The position numbers and the translations under genes were made by a program. A stretch of DNA of 64,000 bases from NCBI RefSeq assembly GCF_044324875.1, contig NZ_CP172185.1; one strand, given 5' to 3'. Below are positions 25,069-61,512 of the stretch, in pieces. Source of the DNA: Escherichia coli. GTDB lineage: Bacteria; Pseudomonadota; Gammaproteobacteria; Enterobacterales; Enterobacteriaceae. How positions within the stretch are numbered: the first letter of the stretch is position 1; the number at the start of each line of letters is the position of its first letter. The notes beneath the pieces are model-generated. The model was not told where the DNA came from. It saw only the letters and a list, made by a program, of their open reading frames with translations, and ran no database searches.

Positions 25069-26733
25069 TCAGGCTACCTTTTCGACAGAAACGTCGGCAT
25101 CAGGGCGGGTCAGCGTCATCACCGACGCCAGTTTATTCAGGGTCTTGCCCAGGGTTTGCGGAATGGCGGTGGCGGCAACAAAGCGATCCGGGCGCATCAC
25201 CACCAGCGAAGCATTGTGTTGCGCGAACCAGCTACGCAGGCGACCTTGCGTATCGCCCACGCGTAGTACGCCGTCGTGGTTATCCTGTGCGGTATGAATT
25301 TGCACTTCCGGCACCACCTGAATGAAGCGTGTGCCCAACGCGCGCCACTGCTGGATTTGCTCGTCGCTCATCCCCCACAGTGGATTGCATCCCCAGCCAA
25401 TTACCGCGAAGTTCGCGCCGATCGCGTTATCGAGCAGCGTCACGTCGCCGTTTTCCAGCGTGACTTTCGGCTGAATAAACATCTTGCCGACCGGAGAGTG
25501 CTTCGCTTCGCCCTCACGCACCAGCGCACCGCCGTAATATTGCGGCATCGGCTTGAAGCGCATTTCGAGGAAGTAGCGTTTTACTGGCGGCAGATAATTC
25601 AACAGCCAGGAAACGCCGTCACGTAACGTACCCTGCCAGCGTTTCGGTGGAGCCAGCACGTTGCCCGCCGTCACGGACAGGTCAATCATCGCTTTGGCGT
25701 GATCGCGACGTTCTTGTTGATAGGTATCGAGCAGCGCATCACGGGCTTTCCCCTGGATAACCAACGCCAGTTTCCATGCGAGGTTAAAGGCGTCGCGCAT
25801 ACCACTGTTATAGCCCTGCCCCTGCCACACCGGCATGATGTGCGCGGCATCGCCCGCCAGCAGTACGCGATCAATACGGAAACGTTGCGCCAGTCGCGCG
25901 TTATGGGTGTAGACACGCTGGCGAATCAATTCAACATTGTCCGGATTAGGCAGCACTTTGCTTAACAGCTTGCGCATATTTTGCGGCTCACGCAGCTGTT
26001 CTTCGGTTTCTCCCGGCATCACCATAAATTCAAAGCGACGTACCGCATGAGGCAGCGCGGCAGAAACATACGGGCGCACCGGATCACAACACAAATAGAT
26101 ATGGGGCGTACTTAACGGATCGTTGGCGATATCTACCACAATCCACTGATTTGGCGCAGTTTTACCTTCAAACGGCACATTCAGGGTGCGACGGACAAAA
26201 CTTGCCCCACCATCACAGGCCACCAGCCACTGAGCTTTGACCGTTTCCCGCTGCCCTTCTGCCGTTTTCAGGTGCAAGGTCACTTCGTCATCTTGCTGGC
26301 TGAAGGCCTCCAGCTCGCGGGAAAACAGGCAGCGCACATTCGGAAAACGCGACAATCCTTCCAGCATCACCGCATCGACCTGAGGCTGAATAAAGGCGTT
26401 ACGGCGCGGCCAGCCAAATTCATCGGTCATTGGCTGAATATCAGCAAAACAGCGACCTTTCGGGGTGAGAAAACGCATCGCGTGCCACGGCGTAGTGTGC
26501 GGCAGAACATTATCGACCAGGCCGACCGACTGCATGGTGCGCAGCGCCTCGTCATCAATACCAATCGCACGCGGGTAGTCGATCAACTTATCGAGTTTCT
26601 CCACCACCAGCACGTCAATGCCCATCTGGCCGAGATAGTTCGCCATCATCAGCCCGACCGGACCGGCACCAGCGATCGCCACCTGAACGCTATGGTTAAC
26701 AGCAGGCTGGATGTCAGGGTGTTGTATTGCCAT
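25069..26733 (-). CDS. mhpA: 3-(3-hydroxyphenyl)propionate hydroxylase (FAD monooxygenase)
   Basis: 554 aa; FAD-binding GxGxxG at N-terminus ([16 protein letters not shown]). Confidence 0.93.
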
Positions 26734-26874
26734 TTCAGTACCTCACGACTCGGACAAAATGCCGTTGCGCGCACAGTACAGCGCAACTTATTTTGTTAAA
26801 AACATGTAAATGATTTTTTATTGTGCGCTCAGTATAGGAAGGGTGTTTCCGGCTACAATCAAAACATGCCCGAA

Positions 26875-26891
26875 TGTGCACCAGGTGCACA
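26875..26891. promoter_or_regulatory. 17-bp palindrome TGTGCACCAGGTGCACA, candidate MhpR operator in the mhpR-mhpA divergent region
   Basis: Perfect dyad TGTGCACC-A-GGTGCACA between the divergent mhpR and mhpA starts. Confidence 0.6.
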
Positions 26892-26923
26892 ACGTTGTTT
26901 TAACTATAGAAATGTCAATTAAT

Positions 26924-27757
26924 ATGCAGAACAATGAGCAGACGGAATACAAAACCGTGCGCGGCTTAACCCGCGGTCTTATGTTATTAAATATGTTAAA
27001 TAAACTTGATGGCGGTGCCAGCGTCGGGCTGCTGGCGGAACTCAGCGGCCTGCATCGCACCACTGTGCGGCGACTGCTGGAGACGCTGCAGGAAGAGGGA
27101 TATGTCCGGCGTAGTCCCTCCGATGATAGTTTCCGTTTGACCATCAAAGTGCGGCAATTAAGCGAAGGATTTCGTGACGAACAGTGGATTTCTGCACTGG
27201 CGGCCCCACTGCTGGGCGATCTGTTGCGCGAAGTGGTTTGGCCAACAGATGTGTCCACCCTGGATGTTGATGCAATGGTGGTACGCGAAACCACCCACCG
27301 TTTCAGCCGCTTATCCTTTCACCGGGCAATGGTCGGGCGACGTTTACCGCTTCTGAAAACCGCCTCGGGCCTGACCTGGCTGGCCTTTTGCCCGGAACAA
27401 GAACGCAAGGAATTAATCGAGATGTTAGCCTCCCGCCCCGGTGATGACTATCAACTGGCACGAGAACCGTTAAAGCTGGAAGCCATTCTGGCGCGCGCGC
27501 GCAAAGAGGGTTACGGACAGAACTACCGCGGCTGGGATCAAGAAGAAAAGATCGCCTCCATTGCCGTACCGCTGCGCAGTGAACAACGGGTGATTGGCTG
27601 TCTGAATCTGGTGTATATGGCGAGCGCAATGACCATCGAACAGGCAGCGGAAAAGCATCTTCCGGCGCTACAACGGGTGGCAAAACAGATCGAAGAAGGG
27701 GTTGAATCGCAGGCTATTCTGGTGGCCGGACGGCGAAGCGGCGTGCATTTACGCTGA
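26924..27757 (+). CDS. mhpR: IclR-family activator of the mhp operon
   Basis: 277-aa frame from MQNNEQTEYKTVRGLTRGL…; IclR-type N-terminal HTH. Confidence 0.9.
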   Translation: MQNNEQTEYKTVRGLTRGLMLLNMLNKLDGGASVGLLAELSGLHRTTVRRLLETLQEEGYVRRSPSDDSFRLTIKVRQLSEGFRDEQWISALAAPLLGDLLREVVWPTDVSTLDVDAMVVRETTHRFSRLSFHRAMVGRRLPLLKTASGLTWLAFCPEQERKELIEMLASRPGDDYQLAREPLKLEAILARARKEGYGQNYRGWDQEEKIASIAVPLRSEQRVIGCLNLVYMASAMTIEQAAEKHLPALQRVAKQIEEGVESQAILVAGRRSGVHLR

Positions 27758-59679: not shown

Positions 59680-60160
59680 AATTCCCTCCGTAGGTTTGGC
59701 TCAGCGCACAACCATCGGCCATGCCATACAGCATGTCGCAGCCGGAACTGGAGCCAATATGTTTAATTTTTTCTATTGCCTGGGTTGAATTCCCAGGGAC
59801 ACCATAAATAATATCGTGAATAAAATGATGAATATTTTCCCGGCAGCGTTGTTGTAATGCGGCTTCCAGCGTTATGGCACTTAATAACGTGGTATTATTT
59901 CTGCCGCGTTGCAGACCGATATAAAATTCCTCTTTGTATTTTTCCGCCGGATGTCCGGAAATAAATAAAATAAGCGCCAGACCTGTTAAATAATCATCGG
60001 CTGATGGCGTAAGGCCAATCCCTAACCCCATCATACTGGCGACCGCTAAGGCGATATTTTTTTTATCGTTTACTTCCTGAATAACTGCCCGTCGTTTAAT
60101 ATGTAATTCTTTATTTAACGCCTGATAAAACGGATTATCGCCGCGATAATTAAACAGGGT
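59669..60160 (-). pseudogene. yahE: YahE-like (DUF2877) gene, 3' portion only; 5' end replaced by IS1
   Basis: Frame stays open without a start codon from the IS1 boundary at 60160 down to the stop at 59669 (…TLFNYRGDNPFYQALNKELHIKRRAVIQEV…MMGLGIG…); overlaps the yahF start. Confidence 0.65.
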
Positions 60161-61270: not shown

Positions 61271-61512
61271 TAAACAGCATTCTGATAGAGAGTGCCTGTA
61301 TAAAGCTGAAGTGACAATGACCGGGAAGGGAACCCGTTTTCAGGAATGGATGCCTGTCTTTTTCACTGTAAATATCCTGGCATTACTAATGCCAGGATAT
61401 TTACAGAAGAGCAGCATAACCATGACGGAACGGGGTTAAGTCAGGTTGTCCTTAACGCTATTCACAACCTCGTATGCCGACTTCAGGTTTATGTCCAGAC
61501 TTCATATCTCTC

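Follow-up and report, generated by a model that had tools for sequence, protein, structure and literature searches.

The perfect palindrome between mhpR and mhpA of an Escherichia coli strain is very probably a common allele of the known MhpR operator

What does a perfect palindrome of 17 bp do in the short non-coding region between the divergently oriented genes mhpR and mhpA of E. coli? A first-pass annotation had noticed the dyad and proposed that the IclR-type activator MhpR acts through it on the mhpA promoter. Palindromes of this size also arise by chance, and the same sequence could in principle be read as a site for another regulator or as an RNA element. The analysis covered the window, i.e. 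the whole stretch of 64,000 nucleotides in which the dyad is located, together with the corresponding loci of other E. coli strains and other species. The features that define the locus are the following:

Positions 26875..26891: palindrome TGTGCACCAGGTGCACA, consisting of TGTGCACC-A-GGTGCACA; very probably the MhpR operator in the allele of this strain.
Positions 25069..26733, minus strand: mhpA, with its ATG at 26733; first gene of the regulated mhpABCDFE operon.
Positions 26924..27757, plus strand: mhpR, with its ATG at 26924; encodes an IclR-family activator of 277 amino acids.

The dyad was found where it had been reported, at 26875-26891, with two arms of 8 nt each that are 100% complementary and a single base at the centre. 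Its placement in the divergent region also held, as 26734-26923 is exactly the 190-bp gap from the ATG of mhpA to the ATG of mhpR. Downstream of mhpR come lacI and then lacZ, and the gene arrangement agrees with the RefSeq annotation of an identical locus. The 190-bp gap of the window is 100% identical in E. coli strain C4, and the gap is present in 4,896/5,426 complete E. coli genomes. An ORF finder returned a longer frame of 315 amino acids (26810-27757), in which mhpR would begin further upstream, at an ATG at 26810, and the operator would be read through. The evidence supports ATG 26924 rather than ATG 26810 as the true mhpR start, since it is the start in the RefSeq annotation and since the N-terminus that follows it is conserved (an EYK motif 6-8 residues past the start).

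A bare palindrome is weak evidence of function and its context is decisive. Perfect palindromes with 8-nt arms and a spacer of 0-1 nt occur three times in the 64-kb window, compared with 2.5 +/- 1.7 expected from Markov-1 simulations, and a 190-bp stretch of like composition would contain one or more with a probability of about 0.011. The other two are CTGGCATTACTAATGCCAG at 61377-61395, with 9-nt arms, and ATTATCGCCGCGATAAT at 60134-60150, with 8-nt arms. No additional MhpR-type sites above chance were found within the 64-kb window. A repetitive extragenic palindrome was considered and rejected, given that the dyad has one copy in the window and a median of one location in the genomes of E. 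coli.

The identity of the site was established by comparison with the experimentally mapped MhpR site, the check that the first-pass annotation had itself called for. The experimentally defined MhpR motif is GGTGCACCTGGTGCACA, attributed to Torres et al. 2003 (Table 1 in PMC8222616), and PMC8222616 was the only match in a full-text literature search for the operator sequence. In the K-12 MG1655 locus the published GGTGCACCTGGTGCACA is found exactly, in the direction of mhpA. The minus strand of the window, TGTGCACCTGGTGCACA, is identical to it at 16/17 bases, including 15/15 bases of the core GTGCACCWGGTGCAC, and the only mismatch is at 26891, where the window has A and K-12 has C. As compared with the K-12 Pa operator, the locus, the flanking genes, the core and the regulator are thus the same, and the difference is that the perfect dyad spans 17 bp in the window and 15 bp in K-12. 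With this match to the published operator and with the cognate genes on either side, the proposed reading stands: the dyad is very probably the operator of the adjacent IclR-type activator MhpR, acting on the mhpA promoter Pa. The site and its regulator were already characterised in 2003, and this is an ordinary known control element of the E. coli genes that degrade 3-hydroxyphenylpropionate (3HPP). For K-12, binding of MhpR to the operator sequence has been shown in the literature and is stimulated by inducer. MhpR is there a 3HPP-dependent activator of Pa that is essential for CRP binding at this promoter (PMC8753852), and 3HPP and phenylpropionate (PP) act synergistically (PMC11603403).

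The proteins encoded on both sides are those expected from the K-12 locus. The MhpR of the window contains the HTH_IclR and IclR_C domains, matches the NCBIfam equivalog NF007341 at 345 bits (cut-off 269) and is identical to K-12 MhpR at 275/277 residues (99%), with residues 1-159 and the HTH identical. MhpA passes the equivalog model NF004827. The presumed recognition helix HRTTVRRLLETL is near-invariant among MhpR orthologues; a search for solved MhpR structures returned distant IclR-family entries only.

The conservation of the dyad outside E. coli was examined at 80 loci from 80 species, obtained from one MhpR scan of 100,044 species genomes and belonging to Escherichia, Citrobacter, Kluyvera, Shimwellia, Edaphovirga, Pluralibacter, Pseudomonas, Azotobacter, Azomonas, Marinobacterium, Zobellella, Nitrincola, Oceanospirillum, Xanthobacter and Vibrio. 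GTGCAC-N3-GTGCAC was present within 450 bp upstream of mhpR in exact form in 68/80 loci, and a further 10 had it with a single mismatch. In the 447 kb around the 80 mhpR orthologues there were 73 exact dyads compared with 0.03 expected, and 69 of these were located just upstream of mhpR. The idea that the palindrome is a functionless chance occurrence draws on the palindrome count in the window, which is at chance level (3 versus 2.5), but an exact dyad kept across 68 species while the surroundings diverge, and a match to the published MhpR operator, make it vanishingly improbable, and the cross-species conservation excludes it. The significance of the site therefore lies in the conservation of the dyad in its context (73 versus 0.03) and not in the rarity of the palindrome.

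The dyad was always flanked by mhpR on one side and by a divergent operon of mhp catabolic genes on the other. About 64 loci have mhpA as the gene divergent from mhpR, 5 have mhpB and 7 have mhpD. Given that the partner varies in this way, the dyad tracks the pair of regulator and catabolic operon rather than one particular gene. Four extra exact dyads were found downstream of mhpR (L045 2671-2685, L050 3301-3315, L059 3323-3337 and L084 3343-3357). In the three Marinobacterium loci L045, L050 and L059 the extra dyad precedes a separate mhpB operon and is followed by TGaTTTTTCTTGAtg and TATACA at the spacing of the E. coli Pa. Two Vibrio loci (L026 and L034; V. cincinnatiensis and V. furnissii) lacked both a divergent mhp operon and any dyad within 2.5 kb. 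The two Vibrio MhpR orthologues are 69-74% identical and carry the same recognition helix, and since no dyad is found within 2.5 kb despite this helix, their target would be located elsewhere.

The cross-species position matrix defined which bases of the palindrome matter:

Positions 26876..26890: 15-bp core GTGCAC-N3-GTGCAC, with a 6-bp half-site on either side of a free 3-bp spacer.

The 12 bases of the half-sites are fixed and the triplet at the centre is free (TAA, CAG, TTA, TAT and TAG being the commonest across species); the outer pair is only weakly conserved, with T at -8 in 44/69 sites, A at +8 in 48/69 and T and A together in 33/73. This indicated that the functional unit is a 6-3-6 dyad with the consensus tGTGCAC-N3-GTGCACa. 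With A instead of C at 26891 the dyad is perfect over 17 rather than 15 bp, and this form matches the cross-species consensus.

How common the perfect form is within E. coli was determined by counting alleles among the 4,896 genomes that carry the region, all but about 112 of which were assigned:

Perfect 17-mer of the window, A at 26891: 3,070 genomes.
Perfect 17-mer with a flank change, 26894 G to T: 166 genomes.
K-12 allele, C at 26891: 1,503 genomes.
T at 26891: 13 genomes.
G at 26891: 3 genomes.
Spacer CAG changed to AAG: 7 genomes.
Spacer CAG changed to TAG: 6 genomes.
9-bp duplication giving three half-sites: 16 genomes.

The perfect 17-mer is thus present in about 3,240 of the 4,896 complete genomes, which makes it the usual form in E. 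coli. What was noted as a perfect 17-bp palindrome is one allele of the site, and the K-12 operator that was used for footprinting is a minority allele that is perfect over 15 bp only. A further spacer change, CAG to CAA, was sighted once among the sequences sampled. None of about 27 E. coli sequences sampled had a change in the 12 core bases, and the variants were located at the outer base, in the spacer or in the flank. The A/C difference at 26891 probably has little effect.

If the dyad controls the mhpA promoter, its distance from the promoter elements should be visible in the conservation of the region. A scan with the sigma-70 consensus found no strong promoter in the region, which is expected of an activator-dependent promoter, and the position of Pa was instead deduced from conservation. 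When the loci were displayed gap-free and anchored on the dyad, two blocks appeared on the catabolic side: AGTATA and CTACAA, which read on the opposite strand as the -10-like TATACT and as a weak -35, TTGTAG, respectively. At 71/81 dyads across taxa, 52-54 nt separate the dyad centre from the start of the -10-like hexamer, which is TATACT/CATACT-like, CATACT being the form of the P. fluorescens group. In the window this gives the following predicted elements:

Positions 26831..26836, minus strand: predicted -10 TATACT of Pa, based on sequence and conserved spacing.
Positions 26853..26858, minus strand: TTGTAG, predicted as a weak -35 of Pa and located 16 nt before the -10; ATTGTA/GTTGTC is conserved at this offset.
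Positions 26824..26825, minus strand: predicted Pa start, based on the position of the -10; the dyad centre (26883) would be at -58/-59.

The exact start of Pa in this strain is accordingly predicted, from the sequence, to be 26824/26825. The predicted geometry agrees with the abstract of Torres et al. from 2003, in which the MhpR site is reportedly centred at -58 of Pa. A different 5' end is given in the table of Kim 2012, where a single mhpA start is placed at K-12 position 367817, corresponding to 26751 in the window, 18 nt before the ATG (9 reads, uninduced cells). This start differs from the predicted Pa start and is located just downstream of an inverted repeat, TTGCGC-N10-GCGCAA (26765-26786), within the predicted mhpA leader; the signal at 26751 may stem from a processed RNA end or from a minor promoter. 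For mhpR the Kim 2012 supplement lists no start, a portion of the Cappable-seq supplement, which may not reach this part of the genome, yielded no starts at these coordinates, the Reg-Seq and PredCRP supplements have no mhp entries and the strain used for Footprint-seq is without the mhp locus.

With this geometry, the operator would be bound by an MhpR dimer, or by a dimer within a tetramer, with one winged-helix domain per GTGCAC half-site, and its centre would be about 58 bp upstream of the Pa start, directly upstream of the weak -35. MhpR loaded with 3-hydroxyphenylpropionate, with synergy from phenylpropionate, would then turn on mhpABCDFE transcription, presumably by contact with RNA polymerase. 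In E. coli MhpR would also let cAMP-CRP occupy a poor site farther upstream, which would place the operon under catabolite control.

The involvement of CRP raised the question of whether the palindrome might itself be a cAMP-CRP site, given that TGTGC...GCACA resembles TGTGA-N6-TCACA. TGTGC and GCACA, the two outer pentamers, share 4/5 bases each with the CRP half-site and CRP-dependence has been reported for both divergent promoters. However, the spacer in the dyad is 7 bp while the CRP consensus needs 6, no correctly spaced CRP site with at most 3/10 mismatches exists in 26734-26923, the dyad is equally conserved beside mhpR orthologues in Pseudomonas and Azotobacter and the published assignment of the site is to MhpR (PMC8222616). 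A CRP site at the palindrome is therefore highly improbable, and this reading was rejected on spacing and mismatch count. Another sequence in the region is a candidate for CRP binding:

Positions 26913..26928: weak CRP-like sequence TGTCAATTAATATGCA, candidate only, with 4/10 mismatches; centre at 26920.5.

The centre of this candidate is at -95.5 from the predicted Pa start, and its TGTCA is conserved among enterics. Torres 2003 is said to have described an MhpR-dependent CRP site at -95.5.

The assignment of the dyad to Pa leaves the question of whether the same site also controls mhpR. According to the published mhp abstracts, the mhpR promoter Pr is reportedly MhpR-independent and CRP-dependent, which counts against such a dual role. 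The positional evidence points in the other direction. The dyad centre is 41 nt from the mhpR ATG in the window and 26-44 nt from it in most of the 80 species, so that the mhpR promoter or leader must overlap the dyad, and the distance from the dyad to the catabolic start codon varies widely across species. In Pseudomonas a Shine-Dalgarno sequence is located within about 20 nt after the dyad, so close that the mhpR start would be in or upstream of the dyad. On the plus strand TACAAT (26854-26859), which is the predicted Pa -35 shifted by one base, is a good -10 candidate for mhpR. Used as such, it would give an mhpR transcript in which the dyad spans about +10 to +27, and since it overlaps the predicted Pa -35 TTGTAG the divergent promoters may overlap back to back. 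The block containing TACAAT and the -35 is more conserved than a usual -35 in enterics and in the P. putida group.

A second conserved sequence is located on the mhpR side of the dyad:

Positions 26895..26902, plus strand: conserved TTGTTTTA (TTGwTTTA), 12-19 nt from the dyad centre.

Its information content is 1.3-1.8 bits at most positions and 0.7-0.95 at two (69 loci). TTGwTTTA flanks the dyad only where an mhpR start adjoins and is absent beside dyads without a neighbouring mhpR start; in Pseudomonas the order is TTGwTTTA, then the Shine-Dalgarno sequence, then the start codon. It has no likeness to the GTGCAC half-site nor to a clear -10 or -35.

Transcription factors of the IclR family generally control their own expression (PMC8222616), and by virtue of its position in the mhpR promoter or leader the site might do the same here, bound MhpR repressing or blocking mhpR transcription. 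On the other side, expression from a PmhpR-lux fusion was constitutive and did not respond to 3HPP or PP, which is said to fit Torres 2003 (PMC11237407), and taking the two sides together we consider this dual role unlikely. In the same study mhpR mRNA rose 15-fold at pH 4.4 with promoter activity unchanged (PMC11237407). A broader form of the idea, in which the operator also serves mhpR and either its occupancy by MhpR or a hairpin formed by the dyad in the mhpR leader tunes mhpR expression, is suggested by the conserved 26-44 nt distance, by the restriction of TTGwTTTA to the neighbourhood of an mhpR start and by the overlap with the promoter or leader; we regard it as quite unlikely. If true, this role of the operator could account for the rise of mhpR mRNA at pH 4.4, which is post-transcriptional and unexplained.

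A hairpin could also be the whole function of the palindrome. If it worked as RNA, the dyad and a U-rich run behind it would form a terminator-like attenuator or a stability element in the mhpR leader. In favour of this, 26875-26891 and ACGTTGTTTT together are picked out by a simple scan as a terminator-like structure of the plus strand, conservation extends to the T-rich TTGwTTTA behind the dyad, and the pH response just described occurs without a promoter change. But the predicted fold of -10.9 kcal/mol is not exceptional (z = -0.96; 33/200 shuffles fold as well), Rfam gave no match and the stem bases are invariant rather than covarying: among 9 dyads with one mismatch, 5 break the pair, 4 form G-U and 0 are compensated. 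In addition, the T-run begins 4-5 nt past the stem and contains a conserved G, and the same dyad occurs without a T-run ahead of mhpB operons. An RNA function is therefore improbable, and the hairpin or terminator reading was rejected on the fold statistics, the Rfam result and the lack of covariation.

As the MhpR operator of Pa, the dyad resembles the operators of PobR, PcaU, PcaR, HmgR and TphR, which are likewise palindromes of 15-21 bp between a divergent regulator gene and the activated operon (PMC8222616). The MhpR half-site GTGCAC differs from the half-sites of all five. PcaU, PobR and HmgR have an external direct-repeat third half-site, whereas none is evident here. TTGwTTTA is unlike the half-site. 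In its position the site is like CRP at -61.5 of lac (class I-type), as it is about 58-60 bp upstream of the predicted start, abuts the weak -35 and keeps a fixed spacing across taxa; unlike CRP at lac, MhpR belongs to another protein family, its contact with RNA polymerase is proposed only and the position of the site is counted from a predicted start.

What is new here is limited to the allele frequencies, the cross-species core with its constant distance from the promoter and a conserved neighbouring sequence that is unexplained. That gamma-proteobacteria as far apart as enterics and pseudomonads keep a 6-3-6 core at one distance from the catabolic promoter helps in annotating mhp regulons and in designing 3HPP biosensors; the significance of the site beyond correct annotation is otherwise little.

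Two minor observations concern variants of the region in E. coli. In the allele with three half-sites (L003, positions 441-467, which align to 26875-26891), a tandem 9-bp duplication places GTGCACCAG twice in a row, followed by GTGCAC, so that two overlapping dyads are formed. One of these dyads retains the promoter spacing and mhpR is 9 bp farther off; 16 complete E. coli genomes carry this allele, and many of these are chicken isolates. Finally, the E. coli genome matches included ten plasmid copies of the mhpA-mhpR intergenic region, which may be F-prime lac or cloned fragments, and nine of them carry the K-12 allele.
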